In this document: piece by piece, positions 13,688 to 47,115 of the stretch | Layout: every line of letters starts with the position of its first letter | Numbering within the stretch: position 1 is the first letter of the stretch | Assembly: GCA_963575745.1 (NCBI GenBank) | Contig: CAUYUJ010000088.1 | Span: 1-64,000, forward strand | Direction: 5' to 3' | Origin: Prorocentrum cordatum | Taxonomy: Eukaryota | Length of the DNA: 64,000 nucleotides | The notes under the pieces: generated by a model | What the model was told of the DNA's origin: nothing | Database searches by the model: none | What the model saw: only the letters and a program-made list of their open reading frames with translations | Made by a program: the position numbers and the translations under genes

Positions 13688-13766
<79 letters not shown>

Positions 13767-13857
13767 CCAAAAAAAACCCACACAAAAAAAACACCACAAA
13801 AAAAAAAAAAAAAAAAACAAAAAAAAAAAACCACACCCACACAAAAAAAACACCACA

Positions 13858-13893
<36 letters not shown>

Positions 13894-13899
13894 ACACTG

Positions 13900-13958
<59 letters not shown>

Positions 13959-13963
13959 TCTCT
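13688..13963. repeat. (TC)n microsatellite, 5' flank of the retrotransposon (with an internal A-rich stretch)
   Basis: Direct observation. Confidence 0.95.
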
Positions 13964-14088
13964 AGTCTCGGCTCGAGAGTGCCCAGCACTCAGACCGCAG
14001 CCGCGACGCGAAGCGCCCCGCCTCGGAGTCAGACTCCCAGGCCTCGCGAGACCGGAGGGGTCCCAGCAGGACCCTACTGATTCGCGTC
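13964..14088 (+). ncRNA. Candidate HDV-like self-cleaving ribozyme (nested double pseudoknot) at the element 5' end
   Basis: Hand-folded: P1 13964-69/14048-53, P2 14005-12/14081-88, P3 14013-15/14045-47, GG 14054-55, P4 14057-63/14069-75, J4/2 A-CUGA 14076-80. L3 is atypically long. Confidence 0.55.
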
Positions 14089-14115
14089 ACCTCTCCTCAC
14101 CAGAGCGCCCGCGCA

Positions 14116-16716
14116 ATGGCCCCCAAGAAGCCGGAGCGCCGTCGCTCTTCTAAGCAGCCTCCGAGTTCCCGTCCCGCGCGCCCTGCTGCCGAAGGGTCTC
14201 TCCTTCAACGCAAGCAGGACTGCGTCGCAGCGTTCAAGCAAGCGGGGTCTGACCGCCCCACGGCCGCATACAACGGGCTTGCCGAACTGAACGCAGACGA
14301 GCTCCAGGCAACGTACGACATGCACAAGTCCAACACGAAGAAGCTTGGCAGCGCCCTGATCCGCATGTGCGCCGCCAACCAGATCAGCTACACGCTTGAT
14401 CACCACCAGCGCAGCAAGCCTAAGCGCAGTGGCGGTGACACATCACACCCACCAGCTGGGTCCGCACGTCTTCAGGCTGCGGACGCCCAATTCATCGCCT
14501 TGGACCCGACCTTTTGGAAGGTCCCTGTCCTCGCCGAACCCACATCTCCTGACGACGGCAAGACGTACAAGCCCAGTATCAGCCTCCACGACTACGAGAG
14601 CGGTGAACGGCTGCTGCAACACCACCTCGAGCAGGGTAAGCGTACCACGGGTCAGCTTGCGATTGCTGTCATGGGCCCAAAAAACGATCACTACGTCGGT
14701 ACCGAGCTCGCCGTCCCCGTGCTGAAGCGTCACCCCAAGGCGCCCAAAGTGGTCCACACGCACGTCCCCGTGACCGTGTACCAGCTGGGCACCAAGGAAG
14801 TCGCCTGCACGGAAAAAGTATCCGTCGCCACCATCGATCCTGCCGACCACGTATGCTGGATTCGGGTGACCATACATGAAACCGAAGCCATTCCAACGAA
14901 CTGCATGAACATCAGGCCTTCGGAGGACCAGTTCTCGGGACGTGCCCCCGGAGGTGCCCCCGTGAACCGTGGTCCACGCGCCAAGGTCCTTTTCCGAGGG
15001 GAACTCCGCTCCCAGGCCAAGGCGGACAAGGCGCGCAAAACCAAAAAGCACACGGAGTCCCAGAAAGACGCCGCCGCCAGTAAGCCTCGATATTCTCTCC
15101 ATACACCTTTCAAGGCCCTCTTCCACGGCAACTTTAAAGCCGTCACCATCCTCGAACCCTGCAAAAGCCTAGGCAGGTATGGATCGGGCGTCGGAAAGAG
15201 GTCACTGGCTGCCACCTTCGGCGTCAGTCTTCAAGCGGTTGACAAGGTCTTGGCGGGTTCAGGGCAACTCGGCGCCACCTACGACCTCAGCAACGTAGGT
15301 GCAGACGAGCCCACTGCAGATAAGTACCAGACCGTGTGGTTCCCTGAGGACCAGCCCATCACGATGGCAGATGCGTTCCAGAAGTCGGTGGATTTCAAGG
15401 CCCTGGGAGTCGTCAGGCACGGCAAGTCAGGCTTATTGGGGATCCGTGTTTCACGGGGGTCAGACGCCGCCAAGGCCGCTGCCGTCAGCATCCGCGGCTG
15501 CGAGGCCACCCTCGCCAAGACGCGCTACCGCATCACTGGCATTGCGGCACGCCACGCCACGCTGACCCAGCTCGCCAAGACTCTCACGGGCCCGTCCGTT
15601 AAATGGGACTGTGAGGTCTACCACACCGCCTGGGACCCAGCCACTTCGGCTCAGTTTGCCTTAGTGCGCGCCCATCGTCCCCCACTCACATATACGGTAC
15701 GGGTCGCAGGGTGCCACATCCCGTGGAGCATCACCGAGGCCCCGCTGGCTGAGGTGGTGCCGAAGAGGGACAACGTTACCATCGTCACGCCTACCACCAT
15801 CACAGAGCCTGTGACGCCGCCAGCCCGTGGTGGCGGCTTCAGCCCCGCCACTGGCACACTCCTCACCAAAGCGGCCCAGAGCCCTAACCTCCACGACCTC
15901 ATGACTGCCACGCCCAAAGGCAAGGGCGTCGCACCGCTCCTGATCCCCAAGGAGGAGCCTTTAGCCAATCGCCACCGATCCTCCAGCGGGAAACGCGACG
16001 CCACGCCGCACGCAAGATCACACGGCGCCCCAGGCCGCAGCTCCTCTGCACCCCCGCACGGCACGGACGGAGCCGCTGAACAGACGGCCGTCCCAGGATC
16101 AGGTGGTCATGACTCTCGGCTTGGCACGGTGGCGGCTGAAGGTGGGGGCCACACCGAAGGGGACGCTGCCACAGCCGCCGAAGTACCAGGCGACGCTGAC
16201 GACGTCGAGATCCTCTCATCAGGCGATGAATACAGCGTGGCTTCCCACGAACTCAACACCTTCGGCGAACGCTTCGCATCGGCCTCTAAACTGCCAGATG
16301 CCGCCACGACCCGCATCCAACACATGGAACAACAGCACGAGCTGCTTGCCAACACGGTGGATAACATGCAGGTTCAGCTTGCGGGCGTTCTCTCCTCCCA
16401 GGCCATACTTACGGAGCACGTCTCAGGTTTGGAACGGGGGCTTGCCACCGTCGTCACCCAGCAACAGACGGCAACCGCCGAAGCCGCTGCACTGCGTGGC
16501 GACATCCAGGCCCTCCTCGGGCACCTCACGGGGGGCACCATCCACCTGCCACAAGTGGCCACTCTGGAAACTAAGAAGGAGGAAGCTGCAGCGGCCGCTG
16601 AACCCGTGGCTGTCTGCGGGTGGATCGACCAGCCAGGCCAGGTCACCCCAGGGACGGGGCCCCCAGGGGCTGACAAAGGCAAAGACAAGGGTCGGGCCAC
16701 CCAGGAACCCTATTGA
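14116..16716 (+). CDS. Retrotransposon ORF1 (866 aa; putative RNA-binding protein with C-terminal coiled coil)
   Basis: Intact ATG-to-TGA ORF ~150 nt inside the element 5' end; basic N-terminus; alpha/beta RRM-like segment RYRITGI...KWDCEV...FALVRA; heptad-like segment RIQHMEQQHELLANTVDNMQVQL...LRGDIQALL. Confidence 0.8.
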   Translation: MAPKKPERRRSSKQPPSSRPARPAAEGSLLQRKQDCVAAFKQAGSDRPTAAYNGLAELNADELQATYDMHKSNTKKLGSALIRMCAANQISYTLDHHQRSKPKRSGGDTSHPPAGSARLQAADAQFIALDPTFWKVPVLAEPTSPDDGKTYKPSISLHDYESGERLLQHHLEQGKRTTGQLAIAVMGPKNDHYVGTELAVPVLKRHPKAPKVVHTHVPVTVYQLGTKEVACTEKVSVATIDPADHVCWIRVTIHETEAIPTNCMNIRPSEDQFSGRAPGGAPVNRGPRAKVLFRGELRSQAKADKARKTKKHTESQKDAAASKPRYSLHTPFKALFHGNFKAVTILEPCKSLGRYGSGVGKRSLAATFGVSLQAVDKVLAGSGQLGATYDLSNVGADEPTADKYQTVWFPEDQPITMADAFQKSVDFKALGVVRHGKSGLLGIRVSRGSDAAKAAAVSIRGCEATLAKTRYRITGIAARHATLTQLAKTLTGPSVKWDCEVYHTAWDPATSAQFALVRAHRPPLTYTVRVAGCHIPWSITEAPLAEVVPKRDNVTIVTPTTITEPVTPPARGGGFSPATGTLLTKAAQSPNLHDLMTATPKGKGVAPLLIPKEEPLANRHRSSSGKRDATPHARSHGAPGRSSSAPPHGTDGAAEQTAVPGSGGHDSRLGTVAAEGGGHTEGDAATAAEVPGDADDVEILSSGDEYSVASHELNTFGERFASASKLPDAATTRIQHMEQQHELLANTVDNMQVQLAGVLSSQAILTEHVSGLERGLATVVTQQQTATAEAAALRGDIQALLGHLTGGTIHLPQVATLETKKEEAAAAAEPVAVCGWIDQPGQVTPGTGPPGADKGKDKGRATQEPY

Positions 16717-16875
16717 AGGTGCCTCAGAGAGCCTGCCTCAGCCCTCCGAGGAAGCGCCTTCAGAGGCATCTCTTCCCTCTCCGCGTCGTATCTCTTTCTT
16801 GTCACCTCATGTCTGTTTTGGCAGCAGTACGCGCAAGCTATCTGGTGTAGGGACACCCGTCATCTTGCAGGGGGC

Positions 16876-19800
16876 GTGATTGTTGCAATGTACGTGAGCA
16901 TGCAGGGGTATTTGAGGATGCGTGCTGACATGCAGCTTTTGGCTTATCGCTCGCGCCGCCCGCCAGGCCTCGCCATCATGTGGCGCCTTGCCTGCAGCCT
17001 GGCCCTCCCCTCGATCGCTGGAGCACACCCGTCTTCAGGCGGTGCGCCCCAGCATGGAGGAGAGTTTTTCCTGCGACACGCTGAACGTGGGACTTTCTTC
17101 TACCTTAACGATGACAGCATCAACAAGCACGATCACTGCACCATTTTGGACCCGATCATGAACAGCACCGCCGCCGCGGGTCCGTGCGGCAACGGAGCGC
17201 TGGGCGCCATCGCAAGCGCATCCACGCCCTCGTCAACTACGACACATGCTTCGCAGTCCACCCCCAGCGTGGCTTCGACCGTTGTGCAGCATATCCTTGA
17301 CGGGGACGTTGACAAAGGCCAGGCACGCAGTGGCGGCTTCAGCCCCGCTGGCGTGCCCCGCTATAGCCCCACGGGTTTCATTACCCCTCTGTGCGCTAGG
17401 GGCGAACCCGAGGAGGACCCCGCTTTCTGGCACCTGATGATGATCCGAGCCCGGCTCATACCGTGCGCTGCGGCGTGGGCACCAGGTGAGGACCACCAGG
17501 ACGTGTTCTGGGCATGGCTCGAGGACTGCGTCCCGTACATCCTGGCGACGCTCCATCTGCCACAGTACGACCACCTTTTCCAGGAGGACTCCGAGGAGAC
17601 AACCGACGCCCTGCGCCAGCGCACCGCGATCGACATGTGCGAGGACATCTGGTATAGAGCGGGCCCCGACAGACAGCGCACAAACCGCAACCTCACTCGT
17701 ATCCAGGGTAGCCGCGAGTATTCCACCCGCTACTTTGGCCTCCTTCTGGAATACCAGGGTGCACGTGCCCAGCTTGTCGGCCCTGAGGCTTTCGCGGCAC
17801 CTTTGCCGCCATACCTCTCACGGGCCCACGCCTTACTACCAAGAGGCCTTCCTCCACCCGACCAAGACGCCCTGGCGTACCTCGCGGATGCGATCCTGCA
17901 CCACCCGACAGACATGCAGCCGCTTGTCGAGGCGGAGCTCGCCGCGGCACCGATTGAACCGCTTAACCCACCACCGCCAGCTGGCCTCGCCCAGCACGCC
18001 ACGGGCGATCAGGCCGCAGACGACCCCGTATCACGGCTGCTCCAGCACATCGCGGCCAGCGACATCAGCGACACACCCCTGGACTCGTTCCACGCGTCGG
18101 ACGATATCAGCAACATATCCCTGGGCTCGGTCCATGTGGACGATAGCCAGGACGACATGGAAACCCAGGATCGCGACGGCACGACACCACCAGGCGACAC
18201 GGCCCAGCGTGACCGTGACAGTGTACCCCACCTAGGGCACACCTCGTCGCACAGCAGTCCGCCTAACAACTCGGCCCAGGCCGACCCCTGCGCACAGCTC
18301 AACGACGCTGAAGGCGCCACTGCCGCCGACGCGACAAGCCATGCCACTGCATCGCCAGCTCATGCCAGCCCGCGCAGTGGCGGCTTCAGCCCCGCTGCAG
18401 CACTGGCTGGACCTGGACATCCCCAGACCGCCATCGACGACGACCCCATCGACGACGAGTACCCAGATGCCAGCGGTTCCCACGAGGCCCAGCACAGCGC
18501 AGCGGCATCACGACACTGTGGCTGCCTCATTTGCCTCTTGGTGGCCACGTACGCCATCGTGATAGCAATGCCGTACAAGGACCAGATCGATGGGTACTTG
18601 CCGACACCGAGCCGAGACCCCAGCTACCGACAACGACGACGACGTGAAGCGGCGGCACCAGGCCCATCTGTGCCCACTACACCCCGACGCACAACGGCAT
18701 ACAACGTCAAGTCCGCATTGTGGGCTACTCTCAAGTGTACCAGCGCCAAACTCAGAGATTTCGTCTCGGGCGGAGCCAGCGCAGTCGGGGTCGGCCTCGG
18801 GGGTTGTCCTGAAATGGGCCAGCGGCAAACTCGGAGCTATTGCCACCTGGCGGAGTGGCGTGCGGTCTTCTACTCGTCGGCGCCAAACTCCTCGCTCAAG
18901 GAGCCGTCGGACACGTAGGAGCCCGCATCTGTGCGCGTGCCCTGGACTCATCCACGGCCCAGTGGTGCCTCCGCTGTTGCCAACCGAGCAGGAGGCCGCG
19001 TGATGAGGCCACATACAAAATGCCGCGCACGCTTGCCGACGAACACGAGGACCAGCACGTGCACTCACTCCGACATCCGCTGCTACAGGAACACTACGCC
19101 GCAGCAGTTGCCGCCGCAGTCGCCGATGTCACCACCGCCACCACCGCCGCCATCGTCGAAGTCACTGCCGCCGTATCGCGAGCCTCGTCTGTCACACCAC
19201 GATCGACCAGCCCGTCCCCGCGAGACGGCTCCAAGAGCGGAGCGGCCTACGGTAACCTACCGACAAACGAAGATGCCACAGCCCACGGCAGTGACACCGA
19301 GGCAAGGGAAACACGTGAGCACACCCATGTTAGCCCGTGGTCCATCTTTCGACATGTTGATGCTCGTGGTTCCTCTACCGACACGGACACCCAACCACCA
19401 CGACGGCGAGCACGCTATGCATCACCCGCCAGGCCCCAGGCGCCTTCAGGCCCTGGTATGCCCTACGCAGCCCTCAAGCCACCGACGCGCAACTTACGCA
19501 ACACTATCCAGCGCGACCCAGCGGTCCCCGTGCCGCCGACGAGCATCCTCAACGCCCTGTACCAAAACGGCTTTGCGCTGGGTAACAGTGGCGTGTCTAC
19601 AGAGGACATCAAAGACGCTCTGCGACTCCACGACCATCCTCGATTCACCCATGATCCAACACTCCAAGCGCTGGTGCCGTGGACTGACATCATGCAGAGG
19701 CCCCCGAACCGCCTCACTTGGGTGCTGGAAGACTCGGGCGGGAACTCAGGCGAGACGATCTTCCCCTACCTCACGTGGGACCTCCGCCAACCCACCACCG

Positions 19801-22800
19801 ACGCGCCCACTGTCTTCTGGCATGGGACCCGCGGCGACCTTGCGGCCCGTCTTGCTGCCAGCGGAGGGCACCTCTTGCCAGGCCCCCGCCGTGAAGCGAA
19901 GGGCCGAACTGGCACCAACGTTGGCCGCACGTACGCGAGCGTGCACCCTTCGCTGGCCGCGTGGTACGCAATGCCGCCCCACCCGCCCTACAGTCTTGAA
20001 GACGACACCCTCGCGTGGGACCCATCGCACTCTGGATGTGCGAGGCCACCCAACCACCGCGCGGGGAAAACAGGCACAACTACGTGAAAGGGGAGGCCCA
20101 CGGAGCGCGCCTCATCTACCCTCGGGTCCTGAGCCTCCTCATCCGCATGGACTGGTGCGCCCCCACAGAAGCTGCCTCCAGGTGCCGTGCCCTACCACAT
20201 GCCTATGGCATGGGCGACTGTGCGCACGCCCTCCACATCGCTGGCTACGATCATCCAGATCTCCGTGAGGCGGCTGAAGCTCACGACCAAGAAGCTAGCA
20301 CCAGGCGCAGGCTGGACATCGCGGCAGCGTGGCCACCGCCGCAGGCACTATACTCGCCAGAGGCAGCGCGAGTATGGGCCAAACAGCACTACGACACTGA
20401 AGCAGCCACCAGGGACGACCCTAACCAGCCCCGCCCACGCGTCTCGCTTCGCAAGCTCCAGCTGGACCCGAAACCACTCATCGACCTGGTGTACACCGGC
20501 TTGCAAGCCGTCCCCGTGCGGGGGCATCCTGACGCACGCGAGTCGCGCCCCAGCGGCTCCAGCCCTGGGGCCGCGTCTGGCCCACCGCGCACTCACAAGT
20601 CAGGCACAGCCCTGGCGCACAGTCCATACCGCTCATCGACGACATCAGGAGCCGACGAACGCCGTACGCCTTCCCTCATCAGCGCGGCCGCCGCCCTCGC
20701 CCGAGGCCACGCCCGCCCACGGCGATCCGCCTCCCGTTCGTCACGGCAGAGTGGCGGACACTCCACCTCGGACAACAGCGACATCGAGACGTGGGAGCAC
20801 ATCGAGACGGAAGAGGAGCCGACTGCCTACCACGTCCTCGCCTACCACGTCCGCGATGTGCGGGCCCGTGTCAATGCCCCTGGCATCGAGGTCTGGCTTG
20901 ACCCTGGCGATCACCACGACGGCGCCTACTTACCGTGGGGGACGACCGTCATGTGCCATCGCGTTATCGACCCTGCGGTGGCGGGGCGCGACGGCTGGGT
21001 CATCCTCCACCACGACCACGGCGACACCACTACCAAGCTCTGGGTACCGACCCAAGTCCACGTCAAAGCGGACGACACTTGGCGCACGGTCATGGTACCA
21101 GCGGACATGGGGCCCCAGTGGATCGAGCGCCATGCCGAGGACGCTCGCCTCCCCGCCGAGGTTGTCCGCACTACAGGCCAATCCTGGTTTGCCGACGTCT
21201 GGCCCTTGTGGGATCGCCCCCGACCTCACCCAGACGACCCAGGCACAAACGAGCATGCGCTCCCGCCTCTACCAGGACGCTGGTCTTGCCTACAGTGTCG
21301 TTTCCAATGCTGTCAGTACTGCGCGGCTCGCCGCAACACGCAGCTCGGCACCTCGGGCCAACCAACGTGCCCAGACTGTGCCCGCAGCGGACTGCGTGCA
21401 CTTATGGACTGGTCCACGGACTACTCTTGCAACAGCTGGACGTGTGCATACAGCACCGACAACAGGGACTCCGACACATGCTGCCTGTCCAGCAGGTGCC
21501 CCCATCCGCCCAGTCCACACAGCCTGCTCGACGTCCGTGCCACAGGGATGCCGCCGCACATCCTTGCCCGCCAATACGGCAACGCGCCAGCCCACCACGA
21601 CATCAAGGAACCCCCCCGAGCGCCTTCAGGCCCCGGGGGGGAACCTCCACAACCAGGCCAAGCAGGTTACCAGGGTCAATGGTACTTCCCACCGAGGCCG
21701 CGGCGCGTCCCCAGGCAGGGACTGCCTGACGGCACGAGGCGGCCACCTGGGTTCACAGGAACGGGGATGCCCGAAGAACCGTCCCCCGACCAACCTCTCT
21801 GGAGGGAAGGCGACGTGCTCTTCGGCCCCCACCAGGCCCTCAAGGAGGAATTCACCTTCAACAAGACGGTCCGCCGACCCTACTCCCTAGCCATCACCAA
21901 CATGTACAGGGACCGTGTCACGGTCAGGACCGTCTGCGAGTCTATCGCCGAGCGCATCCACACTACCCGCACCCGCTGGCGCGATGTGGTACTGTACTGG
22001 GACGCCGAGGGTGGCCCTGGGCCTCAAGCTCTCGACTATGACATGCGACTCTGCGACGCCATGGTGAGCCGTGCCACGACCGAAGCCGAGCTGAACCACG
22101 ACCGCAGCAACCGTGGTAGTTTCTGTCTTTATGGACCAGCGCACCAGCGAGCTGTAAACATCACGGCGCTCTCCGAGCCGCAGAACATCGACTACACGGA
22201 GCATGCGCGGCGATTCTCACCCGTAGGGGAGACCTACCCAGACCATGCCTTCGAGCACGTCTATCGGGGCTGGCAGCGGCCCGACGTGCCCACCATCCTA
22301 CCCGACACCCGCCCCCTCTCGAGAGCTGACCAGCAGCGATATCAACAGCACCAGCAGCGCATTCAGCAGCGCGACCAACGCGACGCAGGTCAGCCGAGCA
22401 CGCCACGCTACCGCTCCCCCGCGCGCGTCCCGACAGGCGGCAGCACGGTGTACGGCGGGGCTGCCGCCTATCACCGTGGCCCCATTGGCGCCAGGCCCGC
22501 GGCGGCTGGAGCAGCCGCCTCCAGCTACGGCCATGCCCCTCACGCCAGGGCGCACCCAGCTGTCATCGGCTACCCGCGTGCACTCGTGCAGGCCCCCCCA
22601 CGGGCCACTTCGCCCGTGCCAGGGTCCACGCGTGCCTGGGGCCACTACCCAGGCCGCCATGACAGCACCCACAGCAACCAGCCCGCAGTGGTAACCCCTG
22701 CGGCTTCAGCCCAGGGGGCTGCAACAAACCGTGGCAGGACAGGGCGCCCTGAAGGATGGCGTGATGCGAACGTGCGTGCTTGGCAACCGCGCCAGCACAC

Positions 22801-23680
22801 GCCCCCGCCAAACGCGGCCGCAGCGCTGCGCCCTGCCCAGGCAAAACCTGCCCCACCTGAGCGGGAGAGGCAGCCGCTCGTCCCGCTCGTCCTCACGTAC
22901 ACTCAGGCGCATCACAGCGCCTCCCCGCGGCACAGCGAGGGAAGCGCCCATCACGTCAGCCCCCGCCCCGACGCTGTCGACCCTGACCAGGCCACAGCCA
23001 CGGCGGAGGGCGGCACAAGCGCCTCCCGCCAGCCCAGACATCACCCTGCGCGGCGCCGATCCGATCCCCGAGCAGGGCGGATTCCGAGCGCGCTAATGCC
23101 CAGGCGACCTCGCCACGCGACCGCCACACGGGCGGGCGCGTCCCGCGCCGCAGGTCCTGCAGCCGCCACAGCCCACGCAAGGCCCCAGGGAGCTCCACGA
23201 GCTCGCCGCCTCGCGAGACTCAGGCTGATGGCCGAGCCCCCGAAGTGGTGCCACGCTTCGGTGCCAGCGTCATCGAACCTGGCCAGGTCGACCTCGAGCC
23301 GACGCCGTCCACGGACCACGAGCTGCCGCTGCCCACCCGCGTGGTCGTCCCCATCGACGAGGCGCCGACCTTCGACCCGTTCAAGAACAAGTACCGCGTC
23401 AAGGACCTTGCGGCGGGTTTCGGCGGCGGCTCACCGCTCTCACCCCAGAGTCGGGGCGGAGCCCCCGCCACCTCAGCCGCTGCCGCGGCAGCGGCGGCCC
23501 CGCGGGGAATCAGCCCTGTCCGCAACGTGGGCCTCACGGCAGCGGGCATGGACGAGGCCCAGCGCCAGGCCTACGACCGTGCTGCTGGAGCTGTTCCACC
23601 AGATGCTGCTCATCAAGATACTGACGGGGCGGGCGCGCCACCGCAGGACGGACCAGCGGTGTCGCGTGCGCAGTATATGT
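16876..23680 (+). pseudogene. Accessory ORF2 of the retrotransposon, broken by frameshifts (pieces 16876..18918, 18840..20087, 20015..~23200, 23245..~23680)
   Basis: Overlapping long + strand ORFs tile the region; they contain hydrophobic segments, an HGT...YAS...WYA ADP-ribosyltransferase-like motif and a Cys cluster. Joining them into one protein is inference. Confidence 0.55.
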
Positions 23681-23955
23681 GCGTGCGTTGTGCCGCTGCC
23701 GCGCCGAGCCGCCGCCGCTGGTTCGCTTTTGCTTTTGTGTGCGGCAGGACGGATCGAGGAGTCGCCTCCCTCTCCCTCTGCTGCCGTCTCACCTCTCCTC
23801 CCCTCGTCCCCTATGGTACTGAAGTGAGGAGGAGTTTTCGAGACAGTTTTACTGACGTTTATGACCCCCCCCTGGCGCAGTGCCGACCATGTCTCGCCTA
23901 TACTTCTGGCCTGACGGCGGCTTCAGCCCCGGCCAAGCTAATCCATAGGAACGCC

Positions 23956-24974
23956 ATGAGCTCCTACTGTGGCCAAGCCTTCTACCTGGGCGAGGGCCAG
24001 GCTGCCCTCCACCGTGCGGGGCGTGCCAACCCCAGCTCCACCGACGGAGACGGGCCAGGTCGCTCCATCCACCTCGTCAGCCTCAACATCACGAGTCTCC
24101 CAGCAAATTGGCCAACTATCACCGCTCTAGGTGTCGACCACAACGCCGCAGTCATAGCACTGCAGGAGACCCGACATGCCAAGCCTACCAGACAAGCCAT
24201 CGCTACCAACGCCGCCAATCCACACCACGGGGGATACCACGCCAGTCTGGGACCTGACCTGGATCTGGCGCGAGCCCAGCGCAGAGCTGCCCACGGCGGC
24301 ACTGACCACACCGTCGTGGGCAACACTGGCGCCTCGGGAGGGGTCGCCATCCTCTCCAAGGATGCCATCGTCGACTCCACTGTCGACGACACTGCGCCCT
24401 GTATCGTCACCCTCAAGGCCAAGAAAAGATGGCACGAGGCCTTCCTCCCGCTCTGCACTCAGCACCGCCGCAGGCGGCGACGAAACAACCACGGGCCCGC
24501 TGGGATCTACATAGCGAGCCTCTACGGGGTTGCTGGAGGAGACAGCACAGATCTTTTTCGGCTCGCTGACTGCGCCGCCGCAAGGGTCGGCTCAGCCCCG
24601 TATTTCATCTGCTGGACGCCAACACGAATATCGACGACAATCCACACCTGCTGCACATGATGCAGCACGGATGGTTTAACGTCGCTGAGGGCACACCAGA
24701 CCACACCATGCACACATACGGCAATATCCCTGACTGGGACCGCGTCACCAAGTGCCCCCGCACTTCGCGCATCGATTACATCATCGCCAACCAAGCGGCG
24801 CGATCCCTTGTCACCGACTTCTGCTATCTGCGAGACTTGCCAGCGAAGTCCCATGTTGGCCTGCAGGTCACGCTCGACCTCAGTCGCCTCGACCATACGG
24901 CCCGACGCCTTCTTGCCCCCACGCCCTACCCCCTAACGATGGAGCTCATGAGGGCCACGAACTGCAGGCATTAG
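23956..24974 (+). pseudogene. Apurinic-like endonuclease (APE/EEP) domain of the retrotransposon, frameshifted
   Basis: LVSLNITSL, VIALQETRH, SGGVAIL, IASLYG, FIC/(G)DAN split by a frameshift at ~24612, SRIDYIIAN, SHVGLQVTL. Confidence 0.88.
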
Positions 24975-25341
24975 GGACCCTCATCGCAGGGCGATACCAG
25001 GACCGCATGGAGCAGGCCGACACACGCGACGATGTGGAACGCATGTTCGCCCTGGCAAACGAGGCCAGCCATGAATGCCATCTCGCCCGTCTGCGCGACC
25101 TGCCACCTCCACCGCCAGACCACCCAAAAAAGAAGCCCCCCACCATGCACGGGCTCACGCCCACGTTCGAGGAGCGACCCGTTGTCCCCCGCGCCTTTCC
25201 CACCTACGGAGCTTCCACGATACACATGAACCGCCTGCGCAAGCTCCATCGGCAACTTTGTGAGCTTCGCTTCATCGGACAGCACCATCATTTAGACTGC
25301 CGTGCCATCCCGCCGTACCTGGCGCAGCGCATCGACTGCAC

Positions 25342-28300
25342 GTGGACCGCGGCCCGCCTCCTCTGTCACAGCTGCGCCCCACGGTTCTCCTGGCCTTTCC
25401 CGAGGCCTGGACCCCCGACGAGCCAGCACCTCACGGAGAGCACCTTGACTGTCTGATCCAAAACCTCGACCCAGAGCTGGCGCGACGTGCAAACCGTGCC
25501 AAAGCTGAACGCATCAAGATATGGGCTGAGGGCGTCCGCGAGCCAAGCGGGCGAAAGGCGGCCATATACGCACGGGCTGCTGACAGCTCGCCCACGGCGT
25601 ATCTCCGCACGCCTACCACTCCCGACGATACACAACTCCACTGCGACACCAACGCCTTTAAACCTGACAAAGCTAGCACGGACGATAGTGACGCCGACAC
25701 CGAAGCTGGCGGCTTCAGCCCCAGCGACGGTAGTTCGCCCGACACGGACAACGACGAAGACCACACTTGTGAACCACCACCTGCACAGGTCCCCGACACC
25801 CTCCCTGCCAACGCCATTGTTGCTAATACCAAAGACATGCTTAAGCTCATGGTCGACACCTGGGAGCCCATCCTGGGCAGGTACCGCGCCCGTGCAGGGC
25901 ATGACGCCGAAGCCATGCCGACGTGGGCTGACTTTTACGACGAGTACCGACAAGAGCTGCCTACGCCATCACCAGCAGCCCCTTTCCACCTCACCGACGA
26001 CCAACTCATCCACTTCATTCGCACCCGTTCACCGCGCCGTGCGGGGGGACTTGACGGCTGGACAACTAAGGAGGCTAAGGAGTTACCCGACAACATCCTT
26101 CGCCTCTTCGCCAGCGTCTTACGCGCTACGCAACGCACTGGCACCATCCCAGAACCCCTCCTTCACGTGCCAAACCCGTGCCTCCGAAAAGGCCGAGGGG
26201 AACTCCCGACGGACCAACGACTTCTCTCGGTGCTTTCCGTTTGGATGTACGCGTGGGAAGCGCCAGCTTACCGCAGCCTCACGGACTGGCGGAAAGGATG
26301 GACCCACGCCACGAGTTTTGGCGCTGTTCCCAAAGCTACCATTGGGGACGTCAGCACCTCTCTCGCCCTGCGCATCGAGCACGCCAGGGCTTTACTCCTG
26401 CCCTTATCTGGGGCTGCCCTTGACCGACAGAAGTGTTTCGACTACCTCATCACGGACATCTGCCTTAACCTTGCGCTCCACGCGGGGTGCCCCCAAGACA
26501 TCGTAACTGTCCGCAGAAACTTCTACAGTCGCCACAAACGCTACATCCGCATGAACGGAGCGTACTCTAAGGAATTGGCCAGGACCAACGGTCACCTCCA
26601 GGGACGCTCATGGTCCCTGGACGACATCAAGCTGCTCATGTGTGTGTGGACAAAGAGACAGCATCGATACGTTCCTCGATCACTCAGCACTACCTTTGTT
26701 GACGACAGCAACTCCACTACCCACACCGCGTCTGAGTTGCAGAAATCTCTTGACGAAACCGCCAAGTTTGATCGATTCTCAGGTCAACGCATTCACCCTG
26801 GCAAAGTGGCGGGGTGGGCGCTCACCGACGAGCTTCACGCCGCCGTTACCCAGTTCACTCTAGCGGAACGGCCCTTACGCGTGGTCGACTCCTTCAAGCT
26901 CGTCGGGAGTTACATCAACGCCGAGGCAGCGCCGTCTCCAGCCGCGCTTAACCTCACGGCCATCGCTGACGCCCGTGTACGGAGGGCGACCAGTCGCCTG
27001 CCGCGCATTGGCAAGCTCCCATCGCCGATGCTTATTAAGGCGCGGCACGCCCGTTCCCTTGCTGCCAGCGTCTGTACCACGGGCACCGACATTCAAGCCC
27101 CATCAGGCCCTGCCAAAATTGCCTACAACCACGCCCTCAAGGCGGCTATCCGCCCCAAGGGGAACAAGCGGGTCGAGTTTTGGACTCTCATGGCCGTGTG
27201 CGTCCCAGGACACGCCCTGGAGATTGACGCCATCACGCAGCGTGAAGCTTTCCTGTGCCTGCGGCGACAGGTTAACCGCGACGTTACACTCTGCGGTCTC
27301 GTCAGGGATCTCCAACACCACGTCCAGACCCTGTTTGGTGGAGGACCTGTCGGACGACTCGTCCAGTCGCTCCAGCAGCTCCGGTGGACCTGGCCCACAT
27401 TTGGCATCATGTACGACGACTGGGGCTGCCAGATCAGCTGGCTGAACTTACCCCAAAACGCCTTCCTTCACATGCTGCGGGCCTCACAACGCAGAGCCTT
27501 TCTACGGAGGATCAAGCCACGGCGTCACGACCTTGGATACCTTGCCTCTGTCAGACAGGGCCTCGACCTCTTCGCCAGCACGTGGCTCGCCCGAACTAGA
27601 GGAGCAGCCAAATGCACTGCCTGGCAGCTGGCGCTCCACCTGAACTACCTGTCGGGCGGGGACCACACCCAACAGCGACGATCCCGATCAAACACGTCAG
27701 CTGACCCCAGCCCCATCTGCCGATACTGCGACGAGGAAGAGGGAACTCAGGAGCACACTGTCCGCGACTGCAAGTGCTGGGCCCGAGAAAGACTCCCTCT
27801 CACCACCCTCATCAGTGACGACCAGTGGGCCCGTCTCCCGCCGCACACAAGACACTGCGGGCTCTTCGACGAAGACCCAGCCCTCCTCGACCTGCAGGCC
27901 GACCTCGCGAGGGACCCGCTACCTCAGCCCATACCGCGGCCCCCCCCTGAGGGAGATCCTGCGGCTTCAGCCCAGGACTCCTACACCACCTACCTTGACC
28001 ACGACACTGGTTGGACATGGGTCTACGCTGCCACGGACGGTGCATGCACCAACCAAGCCATCCCATTGCTAGCACGAGCGGGATACGGCGTCTACTACGG
28101 CATCGACCACCGCATGAACTACAGTGCACGCGTTCACGGCATTACGCAGAACGCACAGCTTGCGGAGACCCTCGCCATTGTTCACCTCACGGCATGTGCT
28201 GAACGGCCCGTACACGTTTTCGTGGACAACCAGGCGGTGGTCGATGGGTTCCAAAGTATCATCGACGGACACTCACCACCGCAGGGCACGCACGTGGAGC

Positions 28301-28490
28301 TCTGGGAAAAGATTCACCGATGCGTCATGGCCAAGCCCAACATGTTCCGCGTCGAGAAAATCGCAAGCCACCTGGGAGACATGGGCATCGACCTCGGGCT
28401 CATCGGGCCCATCGCGGAGGAGTTCAAATCGTCAGGCTGACGCCCTCGCCACAACGGCGGCACGTACTCACAACCTTCCAGACGACATCG
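25342..28490 (+). CDS. Reverse transcriptase + CCHC zinc knuckle + RNase H of the retrotransposon
   Basis: AGGLDGW, LRKG, RLLSVLS, LDRQKCFD (26419), GHLQGRSWS, FVDD (26695-26706), SGQRIHPGK; CRYC-x8-H-x4-C (27718-27771); RNase H TDGAC, AETLA, VDNQ, with the final NRQADALA in the next frame after ~28425. Confidence 0.93.
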
Positions 28491-28623
28491 TCGAAGCTGC
28501 CAAAACACGACATCGCCAAGCGACCGTGCTTCATGGGGTCGCTGTCGCCATCTACGAGCGCAGACACCGCACACTCCCGCTCCCACACCGCAGGGCTGGT
28601 TTACAGCTGCGGAACTCAACAAA

Positions 28624-29784
28624 ATGGAACCAAACCCCCTGCTGTCGGACCAGGCACCACCCGCGGCTGGACCAGACATCCCACAGAACCCGGACGAGCT
28701 CTGGGCCGAGGCCCAATGGGCGATATTCGACGAACAGGAGGACGACCCTTTCGGCTTCGGCGGGGGACTTGACTTCCTAGGCGACGGGCCAGCCAGCGCC
28801 AACCTTGCCCCGTCGGGCATCCGCACGACGCCCTCGACTCCGCCACCGAGAGCGGCACCGCACCCACATGACGACGCCGCTCACCTCCAAGACGCTGACG
28901 AACAGGAAGACGACCCGTTCAGCCTCGGTGGGGGATTGGACGTCCTGGACGACGGCCCAGCCAGCGACAACCCTGCCCCGTCGGGCAACCTCTCGACGCC
29001 TACCGCGACTCCGTCTCCGAGAGCGACATCGCTCCCATATGATGATATCGGTCACCGCCAAGACGCCGACGACGACCTGGGTGACCCCCGCGGACTGAGT
29101 GGCATAGACGACGCACCGCCGACACCCCACGCTGCCGACCATGCCGCCCTTTCGAGACGCCACCCTACTACGCGGATGACCTCAGGGCCCTCGCACGGCA
29201 TCATGATTGGTCCCACCGCGCAAACCACTCCGCCCCCCCACCAGCGGCAGCCCGCGGGGGCGGCTTCAGCCCCCCCGCAGGGCACTGAACCAGGCAGGCC
29301 CTCGCACCCCGTCCACGCTTCCATCGTTGCTGAGCGAGAGGATGCGGCTCTTCCGACCTCTCGGGGCGTGGCCCTAGCGGCTCCAGCCCTGGGGCCGCGT
29401 GCTCCCCTCCAGTCACCTTGCAAGAGTGACGGACGACAGCGTACAGGGTGCCGTACTACGCTAGTCCACCACCTGGACAGGCGTACCGAGGACCTCGCCC
29501 CTGTCACGAGGCCCGCGGCTGCTGGCACTGAACAGCCACCCCGCACCGACCGCGAAACCGAGCTGTCCCAGGCTATGGCCGCTCTCCAGCAGAGGTGTGC
29601 TGCTCTCGCCGCGGACCTCGCTGCCGCTCAAGCCCGCCAAGGCCCTCTACTCCAGCGCCTCCACAGCGCCGGGCGAGCCTTCGCCGAGCTGCTTACGCCC
29701 TCGTCCGATGGTGCCGTGCCGTCACTCACCATCCAAGCTATGCTGTCATCGTTCCGCGGCGCTCCACCTGGTGCCCCGCGCTAA
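28624..29784 (+). CDS. Acidic/proline-rich C-terminal extension (or separate ORF) with terminal coiled coil
   Basis: 386-aa open frame; the homologous frame is also open in the second copy (43212-44036, -). Confidence 0.6.
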   Translation: MEPNPLLSDQAPPAAGPDIPQNPDELWAEAQWAIFDEQEDDPFGFGGGLDFLGDGPASANLAPSGIRTTPSTPPPRAAPHPHDDAAHLQDADEQEDDPFSLGGGLDVLDDGPASDNPAPSGNLSTPTATPSPRATSLPYDDIGHRQDADDDLGDPRGLSGIDDAPPTPHAADHAALSRRHPTTRMTSGPSHGIMIGPTAQTTPPPHQRQPAGAASAPPQGTEPGRPSHPVHASIVAEREDAALPTSRGVALAAPALGPRAPLQSPCKSDGRQRTGCRTTLVHHLDRRTEDLAPVTRPAAAGTEQPPRTDRETELSQAMAALQQRCAALAADLAAAQARQGPLLQRLHSAGRAFAELLTPSSDGAVPSLTIQAMLSSFRGAPPGAPR

Positions 29785-30148
29785 TCTCCTCCTTCCTGCC
29801 TGCCCGTGAGTACGCGTGGCTCCGCGTCCACGGTGCCAGGGCGCGGGGGCGGGGGGTGCCCCGTCACTGCGCGCCGCATTGCGGCCAAGCGCCCAACTGG
29901 CGGTCTGCCAAGCCGCCTAGCCACGTGTCAGCACGTCGCCTTTCTTGTTGGGGCCTCTTTCTTCACGCGGTCTGACAGGTGAGATCATCACCGTCTGTCC
30001 GCCGTCTGTAGCGTCTGTCGCACTGCGCCGGGGGAGGGGTTTTTTGTTGCCCGCCCTCGTATCTAAAGGCTGCACCGCCGCAAATAGTGTTTAGCGAGTT
30101 GTCGCACCGCAGTGCGCTTCGCGGACGGACCCTGGTCCGCCTACTTGT

Positions 30149-30152
<4 letters not shown>

Positions 30153-30205
<53 letters not shown>

Positions 30206-30288
30206 TTTTATTTCTCTCTCTCTCTCTCTTTCTTTCTTTCTCTCTCTCTCTCTCTCTCTCTTTATTTCTCTCTCTCTCTCTCTCTCTT

Positions 30289-30323
<35 letters not shown>

Positions 30324-30335
30324 CTTTTTCTATTT
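30153..30335. repeat. (TC)n microsatellite, 3' flank of the retrotransposon
   Basis: Direct observation. Confidence 0.95.
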
Positions 30336-32894
30336 CTCTATGTCCCTCCCTCCCTCTCTCTCCTACCCTCATCTTTCTCGCTCGCCTCCGTGCCCATCCC
30401 CCCCCCCCCCCCCCCCCCCCCCCCCCGCGCATCCACCCTCGCCCCATGTATCCCTCGCAAGAGACCTCTCAGTTGCATCAGATAAGCTTCACATATGCTT
30501 GACAATCGGGGGCCGTCCTTGTCGCCGCGGCTGGGCGCAGCTCGACTTGCAGACGCGCGTGGGCCCCTCTCTCTGCCGCTCGATAGTCTTGCTTCCCCCA
30601 GCATAACGCCCCTTCGGCCCGCGCGCCGCCGGGGCCTCTTGCCGTCGGGGGACGAGGAGCAGCAATCATTACCTCCACTCCCTCGGCCTCGTCCTATGAG
30701 AGGTCATGGGGTCGCTCTACAAGAGCGCCGAGCTGAAGGCGCTGTTCAAGGCCAAGGGCATTCCAGAGAGCACATCGCGAAGGGCGGGTGGAACGTGCCG
30801 ACGGGCGCCAAGGTGTCGTCGGCGGCGGGGGGGGGGAGGGCGCGCGAGACCTCGGCCGAGCCGCAGGGGAAGTACGACGCCATCGCAGGCGACGCCAAGA
30901 GGTCGAAGCGCGCCACCTTCAGGTCGCCAAAGCGCAGGGCGGGAGGAGGGAGGCAGGCGAAAAAGAGGAGGAGGACGGGGAGCAGGATGAGGAGAGGGGG
31001 GAGGAGGAGGCGGAGGAGGAGGCGGAGGAGAAGGAGGAGGAGAGGGGGGGGAGGGGAAGAAGGAGGAGGGGGAAGGGGGGGGAGGAGGAGGATGAGGAGG
31101 AGGAGGAGGAGGCGGAGGAGGAGAAGGAGGAGGAGGACGGCGACGACGAGGGGGGGATAACGACGGGGATGGAGAGGAGAGGAGGAGGACAGGGGGAGGA
31201 GAAGGAGGAGGAGGAGATGAGAAGGGAGTTGAGGAGGAAGGATGAGGAGGGGTAGAAGGGGGGGGGAGGAAGGGGTCGAGAGAGGAGAGCAAGAAGAAGA
31301 GCCGTGCGACCACGTACGAGGTGAAGGATTACACCGACGGCCAGTACTTACCCATCGGCCGCATCGCTTGGAAAGAGGAGGGATCTCGATTTGGATTCAC
31401 TCCCGCGGGGCCTCGACGAAAATGACGAGGATGAATGGTGAGGTGGGAGAGAAGGAGGAGGAGGGGGAGGAGGAGGAGGAGGGGGAGGAGGAGTGGGACA
31501 TGAATGATGATGAGGAGGGGGGTGTCGTCGCCGTCGTTGCAGACGATGTTGAGTTTGTGATCCCCAGGCGGTAAAATACGCGTCCAAGTGCATGCTGCTC
31601 GGGCCACCTTGGATCATCTTCGATCCGAGGACAGAGGCCCGGAAGGCGTTGTACCTTGCCCGCGCGGGAGCCCCGGTTGCCTGCGCCGCCCTAGAGCAGC
31701 GGGGCCGATGATGGTGACCTGGCCGATCTTATTTTGGGAGCCGTCGATCTGCATGGGCGCCCTCCGATATGCCCTCCGCAACCATGTTCCACCAACCTCG
31801 TGCCCTCCGATATGTGCCGCCACGCTGTGCCCTCCGTGTCGTGCGGGCCTATCCCTCCATGTTCCACCGCCCTCGTGCCCTCCGGTTTGCCCCCCCGCAA
31901 CCATTTGGCCACTGCCTGCGAGCTCAGGGCGTCGGCAAGGTCTTCACGGAGGCCTGGCCCCTGCACGTCGAGTGGGCCGAGGGCGCGACGAGCGCGCCGA
32001 GCGCGCAGGAGCTCAGCAGCACAACGAGGGGGGGCGACGAGGAAGAAGAGGGGGGGATGGAGGCTCGAGGAGGAGGGGGAGGGGGAGGAGGAGTAGAAGG
32101 AGGAGGAGGAGGACGAGGGGGATTAGGGGGAGAGGGGGTGGGTGGGGGGTGGGGGGGGAGAAAGGTGGAAGAGGGAAATAGGGGTGGGGGGGGGTATGAG
32201 GAGAGGATGAAGGAGTAGTATATCACCCCTGATGCATGGTTGCATTTTCAGTGAGGGAGGAGGAGGACCAAGGAGGAGGATTGGGGGGGGGGGGAGGAAG
32301 AGGGTAAGGGGAGGGGGAGGGGGGGCAGGAGGATGGTGAGGAGGGAGAATTTTGGGTGTGAAGGAATGAGGAGGAGAGGAGAGGAGGAGGGGAGGAGGAG
32401 GGAAGGAGAGGGGAATGAAGATGAGGTGGCATTTCATATGAGGACGAAGGCAAGCGAGTGGAGCCGCGCCCGCAGGGTGCCGATGAGGGCAAGGCAGAGG
32501 CGGCAGCGGACGGCCCCGACGGCGCGGGCAAGACGAAGCGCAGGCTGAAGGCGAAGACGCCGAGCGAGGAGGGCGCGGCGACGGGCAAGCCCGAGGCGGA
32601 GCCGTCAGCGGAGCCGAACGCCGCCGCGCCGATGGTCCGTAAGTCCACTGGCAAGGATCTGTATCGGGTCAATTTAGCGGCATTTCCAACACTCAGTCAA
32701 ACCTCATCCCTTCCTCCTTCTCCTAGCCCGTCTCCCCTCTCGTCCTCTGCCTCCTCTTCGTCTTCCTCCCATCTGGAGGGGCCTTAAGGGTTCTGGAACT
32801 TTGCAGGCATCTGGAGGGTCCACAAGGGTTCTGGAATGTTGGAGGCATAGGGGGGATCCACGAGGCATCTGGGGGGTCCTCGAATGTCTGCGCT

Positions 32895-42557: not shown

Positions 42558-42558
42558 A

Positions 42559-42621
<63 letters not shown>

Positions 42622-42700
42622 GAGGAGGAGAAGGAGAGAGAGAGAGAGAGATGGAGAGAGAGAGAGAGAGAGAGAGAAAACAGAAGAGAGAAGAGGAGAG

Positions 42701-42732
<32 letters not shown>

Positions 42733-42739
42733 TGAGAGG

Positions 42740-42771
<32 letters not shown>

Positions 42772-42844
42772 CCGGAGAGAGAGAAAGAGAGATGAGAGAG
42801 AGAGAGAAAGAGAGAGACGAGATTAAGGTGACAGGCCGAGAGAG
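42558..42844. repeat. (GA)n tract, 3' flank of the truncated retrotransposon copy
   Basis: Direct observation. Confidence 0.9.
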
Positions 42845-44036
42845 CGGACAAGTAGGCGGACCGGGGTCCGTCCGCGAGGCGCACTGCGGTGCGACAACTC
42901 GCAAAACACTATTTGCGGCGGTGCAGCCTTTAGATACGAGGGCGGGCAACAAAAAACCCCTCCCCCGGCGCAGTGCGACAGACGCTACAGACGGCGGACA
43001 GACGATGATGATCTCACCTGTCAGACCGCGTAAAGAAAGAGGCCCCAACAAGAAAGGCGACGTGCTGACACGTGGCTAGGCGGATTGGCAGACCGCCAGT
43101 TGGGCGCTTGGCCGCTAAGCGGCGCGCAGTGACGGGGCACCCCCCGCCCCCACGCCCTGACACCGTGGACGCGGAGCCACGCGTACACGCGGGCAGGCAG
43201 AAAGGAGGAGATTAGCGCGGGGCACCAGGTGGAGCGCCGCGGAACGATGACAGCATAGCTTGGATGGTGAGTGACGGCACGGCACCATCGGGCGAGGCCG
43301 TGAGCATCTCGGCAAAGGCTCGCCCAGCGCTGTGGAGGCGCTGGAGTAGAGGGCCTTGACGAGCTTGGGCGGCGGCGAGGTCCGCGGCGAGAGCTAAGCA
43401 CCTCTGCTGGAGAGCAGCCATAGCCTGTGACAGCTCGGTTTCGCGGTCGGTGAGGGGCGGCTGCTCAGTGCCAGCAGCCGAGGGCCTCGAGACAGAGGCG
43501 AGGTCCTCGGTACGCCTGTCCAAATGGTGGACTAGCGTAGTGCGGCACCCTGTACGCTGTCGCCCGTCACCCTTGAAGGGTGACTGGAGGGGCCCACGCG
43601 ACCCCAGGGCTGGAGCCGCTAGGGCCACGCCCCGAGAGGTCGGGAGAGCCGCTTCCTCTCGCTCAGCAACGATGGAAGCGTGGATGGGGCACGAGGGCCT
43701 GTCTGGTTTAGTACCCTGCGGGGGGGCTGAAGCCGCCCCCGCGGGCTGCCGGCGGTGGGGGGGCGGAGTGGTTGGCGCGGTGGGACCAGTCATGATGCCG
43801 TGCAAGGGCTCTGAGGTCGGTCGCGTAGAAGGTTGGCGTCTCGGTAGGGCGGCATGGTCGGCAGCGTGTGGCATCGGCGGTGCGTCCTCCATGCCACTCA
43901 GTCCGCGGGGGTCGCCCAGGTCATGGTCGGCGTCTCGGCGGTGGCCGATATCATCGTATGTGGGCGATGTCGCTCTCGGGGACGGAGTCGCAGTAGGGAT
44001 CGAGAGGTGGCCCGACGGGGCGGGGTTTTCGCTGGC
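42845..44036 (-). mobile_element. 5'-truncated copy of the same non-LTR retrotransposon
   Basis: Reverse complement is colinear with ~28960-30151 with scattered substitutions; same 3' terminus (gtccgcctacttgtccg). Confidence 0.95.
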
Positions 44037-47114: not shown

Positions 47115-47115
47115 G

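Follow-up and report, generated by a model that had tools for sequence, protein, structure and literature searches.

Dispersed bulged-C hairpins along the coding regions of a 16-kb LINE-like element of Prorocentrum cordatum: candidate docking sites for an RNA-binding protein

How the proteins of a long interspersed nuclear element (LINE) choose and coat their own RNA, the problem of cis-preference, is a long-standing open question. It bears on a locus of Prorocentrum cordatum (contig CAUYUJ010000088.1), whose first 64,000 nucleotides (nt) form the window analyzed here. The window contains a full-length LINE-like element of 16.19 kb (13964..30150, + strand), along which the same small hairpin with a bulged C recurs at least 13 times, a lower bound obtained from the one full-length copy examined. 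What could such an array be for? Going by the sequence, the best overall explanation, which we put at slightly under an even chance, is that the hairpins would serve in the sense RNA as docking or nucleation sites for an RNA-binding protein, most plausibly the product of the first open reading frame (ORF) of the element, ORF1p.

The core of the hairpin, the 13-nt word GCGGCTYCAGCCC, has 12 exact matches in the window, compared with a mean of 0.01 in dinucleotide shuffles (0 of 100 reach 12). Ten of them lie on the + strand of the element (15833, 17333, 18380, 20553, 22700, 23917, 25709, 27961, 29260 and 29377), confirming the ten coding-strand copies listed in a first-pass annotation of the locus, and the other two (43736 and 43619, - strand) both belong to a truncated, inverted copy of the element. 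The earlier inventory had, however, overlooked three variants. Two of them, found by allowing two mismatches, carry the core GCGCCTTCAGGCC (19440 and 21620), in which C-G replaces G-C as the middle apical pair (apical helix GCC/GGC), with complementary flanks at both sites. The third (14460-14484, core 14466) is the best non-training match of a covariance model that was built from 17 aligned hairpin sequences and run over both strands of the window. While the 14 training copies scored 34-43 bits, this match reached 18 bits, and beyond it nothing exceeded 16.1 bits, the score of the best antisense match. Within the window, the model separates the hairpins of this element family from everything else, in agreement with the original statement that there is no copy outside the two elements. 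The core is also the sole word of at least 10 letters that recurs four or more times within the element, and the hairpins, dispersed along the whole 16-kb unit as first described, are in the sense orientation in 13 of 13 cases.

Several other candidates were set aside. At 18036 (GCTGCTCCAGCAC), the apical helix is paired but the flanks are not complementary, and the site was rejected as a chance occurrence. A second one, AGCGC-[C]-G(U.C)C-UCCA (26920..26956, + strand), lies inside the core of the reverse transcriptase (RT) region and is weak (10.5 bits, E ~6 over the window), so that it was left out of the 13. Two further ideas, a CUCCA methylation site of the NSUN6 type and a loop of the APOBEC3A type, were put aside as well; 11 of the 13 loops read UUCA. 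A scan of 13900-30400 against Rfam 15 gave no family matching the hairpin up to E=5, and the sole match in this interval, mir-8834 on the - strand (24.1 bits, threshold 39; E=2.5), is at chance level.

All 13 hairpins fold as a lower stem, a bulged C, a 3-bp helix and a UYCA loop, with predicted stem stabilities of -14 to -31 kcal/mol. The bulged-C hairpin is the minimum-energy structure given by RNAfold at all 12 sites other than hairpin 1, which was folded separately. The lower helix comprises 4-11 bp and differs in sequence from site to site, whereas the apical part is constant or changed by compensating pairs only. In all 17 aligned sequences, as in hairpin 1, the bulge is a C, and the loop is UUCA or UCCA.

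Numbered along the + strand, the series opens with hairpin 1 (14460..14484), a variant (GTCCGCA-[C]-GUC-UUCA-GGC-TGCGGAC) with an A-U closing pair and a U.G middle apical pair that keeps the bulged C and the UUCA loop. Hairpin 2 (15827..15851) has the stem GTGGTG/CGCCAC, including one U.G pair. Hairpin 3 (17322..17357), with an extended stem, is the same as hairpin 4 (18374..18398) in 25 of 25 nt, the latter encoding PRSGGFSPAAALAG. The two GCGCCTTCAGGCC variants are hairpin 5 (19436..19456), with the stem CCAG/CTGG, and hairpin 7 (21611..21641), whose stem CCCCCCCG/CGGGGGGG contains one A.C mismatch adjoining the core. Between them lies hairpin 6 (20547..20571), which has a UCCA loop and shares 29 of 30 nt with hairpin 13. 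Hairpin 8 (22695..22717) is built on CCCCT/AGGGG, and hairpin 9 (23907..23935) has the weakest lower stem, with two contiguous pairs followed by an interruption. Hairpin 10 (25705..25725; stem GCTG/CAGC) is located in an acidic linker of ~60 codons and hairpin 11 (27952..27981) in the linker between the C-terminal zinc knuckle of the RT and the RNase H domain. The last two are hairpin 12 (29254..29278; stem GCGGGG/CCCCGC) and hairpin 13 (29367..29399), which combines a UCCA loop with an 11-pair lower stem that includes U.G pairs. An upstream CCAGCCCG is common to three of the hairpins.

Does the pairing of the flanks exceed what such a core would show by accident? At the 12 sites other than hairpin 1, the contiguous flank pairs number 6, 5, 6, 4, 6, 0, 5, 2, 4, 4, 6 and 11, and 61 of 72 flank cells are paired, whereas the average over all element positions is 2.1 of 6 per site, with four or more contiguous pairs at merely 1.6% of positions. 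The observed pairing was never reached, either in 200,000 random draws or in 100,000 permutations that reassigned the 3' flanks among the sites. In an ungapped alignment of 17 hairpins (the 12 sites of the full copy, two of the truncated copy and three orthologues from elsewhere), standard pairs fill 90.0% of the cells, as against 67.9% after shuffling (0 of 500), and the covariation score is 0.524 compared with 0.132 in shuffles (0 of 500). When the partners are slid by 1-3 columns, only 34-58% of the cells are paired. An outside control was provided by the 15-mer GGCGGCTTCAGCCCC, which by itself imposes the first flank pair: at least four contiguous flank pairs are present at 11 of its 119 chance occurrences in viral contigs, as opposed to five of its six copies in the window. 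A chance origin of the core and its flank pairing is excluded, and the complementary flanks reported at the outset stand as listed, with shuffles, random draws and permutations all falling short of them.

Seven of the ten pairs in the alignment vary on both sides, three never vary, and the apical helix shows covariation as well as the lower one. Because of these compensating changes, we conclude that the pairing is under selection and that the hairpins very probably represent a selected single-strand structure. Comparisons with other copies add to this picture. Hairpin 1 is unchanged in its orthologue on contig L122, and hairpin 5 is unchanged in the L123 orthologue despite differing flanks. 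Both hairpins covered by the truncated copy are retained, as noted early on: hairpin 12 (43718..43742, - strand) is identical over 25 nt, and hairpin 13 (43597..43629, - strand) has one difference in 33 nt, a G-C to G.U change that keeps the pairing, which amounts to one difference in 58 nt compared with 8.8% in the surrounding coding sequence. In L124, hairpin 10 shows three changes, two of which constitute a compensating U-A to C-G replacement (one synonymous, one Ser to Gly), whereas the third turns an A.G mismatch into C-G. Among 40 of the 1,882 copy differences between contigs, none falls in a hairpin, but with a mere ~0.7 expected there this count carries no weight.

More distant protein relatives, in which hairpins were inferred by back-reading codons from peptides, point the same way at certain sites. 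P0077 (70% identical in the best local alignment, 44% over a MAFFT alignment) keeps PRSGGFSPAAALAG across hairpin 4 in an otherwise divergent linker, P0079 (59% identical in the best local alignment) keeps PSGPG at hairpin 7, and P0080 reads PLRLQPRG, which corresponds to hairpin 8 with its stem in the third frame. Three ORF1 relatives (32-44% identity) have GHNPA where the element family has GFSPA, in a variable linker of equal length. Since there is no length difference, hairpin 2 appears to have arisen by point substitution rather than insertion, and in these relatives the position may hold a peptide motif or another hairpin.

The hairpins are embedded in protein-coding sequence. Comparison of ORF1 with L122 gives 17, 13 and 48 differences at the three codon positions (48 of 78 in the third), and the 5' part of ORF2 compared with L123 in frame 3, which is open there, gives 7, 15 and 43 (43 of 65); judged by these sequence patterns, the ORFs around the hairpins are real coding sequence under purifying selection. 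Yet the core is translated in all three frames, as GGFSP or SGSSP at five sites, AASA, AAPA or APSG at seven and RLQ at one, hairpin 1, which adds a third frame to the two recognized initially. Together with the covariation in both helices, this supports the original view that the motif is a structure and not a protein motif. Its placement in low-complexity linkers was also described correctly: the hydrophobic fraction within 15 codons on either side of the hairpins averages 0.13, compared with 0.25 for the whole ORF (p = 1e-5).

The hairpins are, in addition, spaced with some regularity. The gaps between the 13 sites measure 1367, 1500, 1047, 1060, 1113, 1067, 1080, 1217, 1792, 2252, 1299 and 117 nt. 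Five successive gaps of 1047-1113 nt agree to within 6% of one another, which occurred in none of 200,000 random placements, and six successive gaps as even as those observed (range/mean 0.155) arise with a frequency of 5e-6; over these six units, the spacing corresponds to ~357 codons. A search for a repeat underlying this pattern gave just a 170-bp tandem duplication within the element by blastn, no self-match at the hairpin-spacing offset by blastp at E<=1 and no other word recurring at a fixed distance from the hairpins. An ancient domain repeat that has diverged beyond detection is a possible source. Regular spacing with no sequence repeat beneath it is unusual in its own right.

On which strand does the structure act? 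At 8 of the 13 sites, the sense fold is more stable than the antisense one; the difference between the folds averages 1.5 kcal/mol and is clearest for hairpin 13 (-29.2 versus -19.7 kcal/mol), and the apical helix of hairpin 1 forms in the sense strand only. Inside the helices, there are six G.U pairs and one A.C pair, three of the G.U pairs representing one position in related stems. The initial claim that non-Watson-Crick positions in the proximal stems are G-U on the coding strand holds for these six, but not for the A.C pair, and its weight is reduced by the shared ancestry and by a mutational bias described below. Because of the match with ORF orientation in 13 of 13 cases, the fold stabilities and the number of G.U pairs, sense RNA is the better reading, and we regard it as probable that the structure folds there.

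By its architecture, the carrier is a probable LINE, albeit a very divergent one. It consists of a 5' untranslated region (UTR), ORF1, a giant ORF2 and a 3'UTR, followed by a (TC)n tail. Its 5' end, AGTCTCGGCTCGAG, directly follows a (TC)n array both here and in the unrelated contig L122, and its 3' end was set by alignment with the 5'-truncated family copy (42846..44036, - strand; ~91% identical), which has the 3' 1.19 kb in common with it and lies between (TC)n arrays. The 5' truncation with a common 3' end, the simple-repeat tail and the presence of (TC)n after the 3' end in 3 of 3 instances are characteristic of LINEs, and the only long repeats found by blastn were microsatellites and the 170-bp tandem duplication, with no terminal repeats among them. 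ORF1 (14116..16716, + strand) has 866 codons plus stop and specifies tandem RRM-like folds at residues ~400-550 and a coiled-coil-like C-terminal part. The ORF2 region (16888..29784, + strand) comprises ~4,300 codons in shifting frames, as it is broken by several frameshifts in the full-length copy; the relative P0074 starts at the Met of 16888. It contains a putative endonuclease of the EEP (endonuclease/exonuclease/phosphatase) type at ~24.1-24.4 kb, a putative RT at ~26-27 kb and an RNase H at ~28.0-28.4 kb. The putative endonuclease matches Pfam Exo_endo_phos with E=5.5e-5 and 23.5 bits, below the cut-off of 24.5, and its N-terminal motifs recur in the relative P0002. The RT gives a very weak match to RVT_1 (E=0.092, 12.9 bits versus a cut-off of 29.6) and no match in the PDB by sequence or profile, but an FVDD box and RT-like motifs are recognizable by eye. 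A profile of three relatives matches RNase H1 in the PDB with E=1e-4, placing an RNase H domain after the RT. The 3'UTR (29785..30150, + strand; 366 nt) contains no bulged-C hairpin.

ORF1 has 71 relatives in a representative protein library, with identities down to 24%. Pfam searches yielded no family for ORF1 or its relatives, and none for the 5' two-thirds of ORF2 or a further 57 ORFs in the window; a PDB sequence search gave no match for ORF1. An AlphaFold2 model of ORF1p residues 370-570, based on a 27-sequence alignment, has a pLDDT (predicted local distance difference test) value of 89.3. Foldseek matches this model best to proteins with tandem RRMs, HuR and Sxl among them (E 6e-3), and the top 50 rows obtained with VIA-align are all RRM domains (Z 6.4-8.1, with a root-mean-square deviation of ~2.5 A over ~70 residues). 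At the level of the modelled fold, ORF1p residues ~400-550 are predicted to form two RRM-like domains, as found in RRM-bearing ORF1 proteins of LINEs.

Several other features of the locus concern the element and its surroundings. (TC)n arrays flank both copies in the window (13690-13963, 30150-30360, 42530-42845 and 44037-44245), and L122 (positions 131-220) has a head-to-tail arrangement in which ~90 nt of (TC)n separate a 3' end from a complete 5' start. Two explanations are at hand, alone or combined: (TC)n forms the tail of the element, or (TC)n microsatellites are its target. Just upstream of the element, two (TC)n arrays enclose an A-rich low-complexity stretch (CACAAAAAA-like; 13770-13895), which could represent the tail of a different retroelement. 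The 3'UTR differs by ~4% between the two window copies, compared with 8.8% in the adjacent coding part, and may hold a recognition element for the RT. The 170-bp tandem duplication (28729-29072, 81% identical) gives rise to a repeated acidic peptide, EDDPF..GGGLD..DGPAS, near the C-terminus of ORF2. A block at 46000-50000 has a low G+C content (0.37-0.44) and a C-over-G skew of -0.46 to -0.60, while the rest of the window has 60-65% G+C. As for the family at large, it is very abundant in several sequencing runs and is present in metagenomes of marine, estuarine and freshwater origin; a metagenome scan yielded one related 1-kb locus (L001), and no relative of the element was found among viral contigs. 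Four near-identical protein fragments carry the source name 'Pyramimonas sp.'. A search of a prokaryote genome collection gave one contaminant contig, which led to a metagenome-assembled genome titled Myxococcales bacterium; four or more of its short contigs (92-95% identical; L002/L122-L126) belong to this eukaryotic retrotransposon family and represent bin contamination.

How might the array work? Given that the bulge and loop are invariant, that the short apical helix changes by compensation and that the lower stem is free to vary, the hairpins look as though a protein recognizes them through the bulge and the loop, and we predict, as somewhat the more probable case, that they are protein-docking sites. 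The sense RNA of the element would fold into at least 13 bulged-C hairpins, at whose bulge and loop an RNA-binding protein would dock; ORF1p, which is encoded by the same element and predicted to contain RRM-like folds, is a candidate partner and the most plausible one. The hairpins would occupy interdomain linkers, whose coding sequence is free to vary, and with one site per ~1.0-1.5 kb, the 16-kb transcript could be captured in cis and coated throughout. From the features described so far, we infer an action in RNA rather than complementary DNA (cDNA), the binding of a protein, the identity of this partner and a role in the assembly of ribonucleoprotein (RNP) particles. The last step is the more tentative one: that the sites serve RNP assembly or cis-capture by a protein of the element itself falls appreciably short of an even chance. 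Still more speculative, and on the whole unlikely, is the notion of a LINE with virus-like dispersed assembly signals, in which a ruler-like array with one hairpin every ~1.07 kb would guide ORF1p, or a domain of the ORF2 product, in coating the 16-kb RNA in cis.

A number of observations weigh against this proposal. Single-stranded RNA is the usual ligand of RRMs, and ORF1p matches known folds with middling strength (Z up to 8.1; Foldseek E 6e-3). Pooling six orthologue comparisons gives ~8-9 differences in ~138 nt, as counted from the alignments, which is near the background of 5-9%. This lack of a pooled depletion of substitutions is due to hairpin 10 (25709), which is variable and has decayed in L125, where the loop UUCA is changed to GUCA and a C.C mismatch breaks a pair, although decay is to be expected in genomic copies since most of them are dead on arrival. 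The DNA-level evidence for purifying selection on the hairpins thus comes from few sites. Hairpin 10 is also absent from L001, a 73%-identical relative, and from two 40-45% relatives, and lies in a ~60-codon insertion specific to this element family, while ORF1 relatives at 32-56% identity lack the core peptide of hairpin 2. Because of these absences, several sites appear to be young. As several hairpins share 25-32 nt with one another, the 13 copies are not 13 independent inventions, and some, to judge from this shared sequence, have likely spread by copying or conversion within the element. The regular spacing could stem from regularly sized protein domains. Lastly, the argument from G.U polarity is weak: in 13900-30400, C<->T differences on the + strand outnumber G<->A differences 2.6:1 among family copies from four sequencing runs, a bias that predicts such a ratio of pairs without selection. 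It mostly reflects third codon positions in a coding strand rich in C, with strand-specific deamination as a possible alternative. Three of the six G.U pairs share ancestry, moreover, and the difference in stability between the strands is small. Taken together, the evidence from orthologues and relatives is favorable on balance, but mixed.

Could the hairpins then serve something other than the binding of an element protein? A docking site for a host factor, acting in the nuclear export, stabilization or localization of a long intronless transcript or guiding its modification, accounts for the structural evidence equally well, since nothing ties the hairpin to ORF1p in particular, and multi-copy export or localization elements within coding regions are known elsewhere, as exemplified by the ASH1 zipcodes and the retroviral constitutive transport element. 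We regard this as the foremost of the alternatives, though an unlikely one, because the motif is confined to a single element family within the window, whereas a site for a host factor would be expected in host genes too. A repeated peptide motif needed by the protein, GGFSP or AASA, with pairing as an incidental consequence, might be invoked in view of the loose conservation of G-[FH]-[SN]-P-A at one ORF1 site in relatives. With the same nucleotides read in three frames and the flanks pairing irrespective of the frame, this idea can be practically discarded. A more general effect on translation would be that the stems slow down ribosomes, such that each ~350-residue domain of the 4,300-residue polyprotein folds before the next one emerges, with the spacing mirroring domain size. 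The hydrophobic-poor linkers, the interval of ~357 codons and stems of up to -31 kcal/mol are in line with such pausing. For this purpose, however, stability alone would suffice, leaving the invariant bulged C, the fixed UYCA loop and the compensated 3-bp helix unaccounted for; no similarity was found among the segments between hairpins, and two hairpins are just 117 nt apart, so that pausing has, in our estimation, a low probability.

We consider it similarly improbable that the module acts at the level of DNA or cDNA, be it as a hairpin priming second-strand synthesis, as a point of template switching or recombination or as the binding site of an element nuclease. The antisense folds are nearly as stable as the sense ones and more stable at 5 of the 13 sites, and a sense A.C corresponds to an antisense G.U. 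Furthermore, indel joints in other copies directly flank hairpin 3 (17187/17191 to 17316/17317 and 17358 to 17384), and a weak joint (15849 to 29798, in one contig with 21 letters on the short side) connects the 3' edge of hairpin 2 with the start of the 3'UTR. Where the strands differ, however, the sense fold is usually favored, most clearly for hairpin 13, the sense-only apical helix of hairpin 1 points in the same direction, and no exact removal of a hairpin is seen among the 15 joints listed out of 22. Copying of sequence could also be the whole story: a palindromic module that moves from site to site by gene conversion or template switching would be a selfish or mutational by-product without function. 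The sharing beyond the core is consistent with this (25 of 25 nt between 17333 and 18380, 29 of 30 nt between 20553 and 29377, and the CCAGCCCG upstream of three copies), as are the location of hairpin 10 in a lineage-specific insertion and the absence of several sites from relatives. Such a module would hardly keep one orientation in all 13 cases, and it has left no copy outside the family in 64 kb and no visible target duplications; the hairpin 2 site has the same length in relatives, the changes are compensating, and the spacing is far from random. Accordingly low is the chance we give it. Neither pausing nor a by-product accords well with the conserved apical module and the single orientation.

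If the notion of virus-like dispersed assembly signals proves correct, the element would be the first LINE in which RNP nucleation follows a sequence-specific code with multiple sites. To our knowledge, no specific internal RNA signal is known for L1, and a literature search on multi-copy hairpins in LINEs, at the level of listings and abstracts, revealed no published equivalent, in line with the first impression that none had been described. The 13 hairpins can be mutated without changing the protein, which, combined with an RRM-type ORF1p, would make cis-preference directly testable. The proposed mechanism would also connect the formation of retrotransposon RNPs with the logic by which RNA viruses use packaging signals, and the hairpin and its cognate binding protein could become an orthogonal RNA tag.

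How does the array compare with known RNA signals? The coat-protein operators of the phages MS2, Qbeta and PP7 likewise leave a single base unpaired on the 5' side, with 2-4 bp between it and a small loop. However, their bulge is a purine (A) and their loops are ANYA or AUAUGG, whereas the element has a C bulge and a UYCA loop, so that the resemblance is one of architecture and not of homology. Iron-responsive elements (IREs) share the bulged C on the 5' strand and can occur several times per mRNA, five of them in the 3'UTR of the transferrin receptor, but they combine a 5-bp upper helix with a CAGUGN hexaloop and reside in UTRs. The element hairpins have a 3-bp upper helix and a tetraloop inside ORFs, and lack a C bulge 5 bp below a CAGUGN loop; Rfam, which holds models of IREs, gave no match. 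Thus, the analogy with MS2- and IRE-type hairpins drawn in the first-pass annotation stands for the overall architecture but not for the defining features of loop and bulge.

A further comparison is offered by the 3' stem-loops of stringent-type LINEs (eel UnaL2, zebrafish ZfL2 and R2), which are recognized by their own reverse transcriptase. There, a LINE-encoded protein recognizes a specific hairpin in its own RNA, which may hold for the present element too, but the known stem-loops are single and situated in the 3'UTR tail, whereas here 13 lie within ORFs and none in the 366-nt 3'UTR. In yeast, the ASH1 mRNA contains four localization elements, which are coding-region stem-loops with a small conserved motif that is independent of the encoded peptide, as in the element. 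They are dissimilar in shape and belong to a 1.8-kb host mRNA, in contrast to 13 near-identical modules in a mobile element.

The closest concept, by analogy, is that of the dispersed packaging signals of single-stranded RNA viruses, as reported for MS2, satellite tobacco necrosis virus (STNV), hepatitis B virus (HBV) pregenomic RNA (pgRNA), parechovirus and enterovirus-E (PMC6281560, PMC4751978, PMC5431903, PMC7612645). Such signals consist of many stem-loops on one long RNA, partly in coding sequence, with a common apical motif and variable stems, the same combination as is seen along the element. They are, however, degenerate and serve a capsid protein in the virion. The element, by contrast, is a non-LTR (long terminal repeat) retrotransposon in which no capsid gene is recognized, and it presents its putative binding sites as a near-invariant apical module of 13 nt that recurs at regular intervals.

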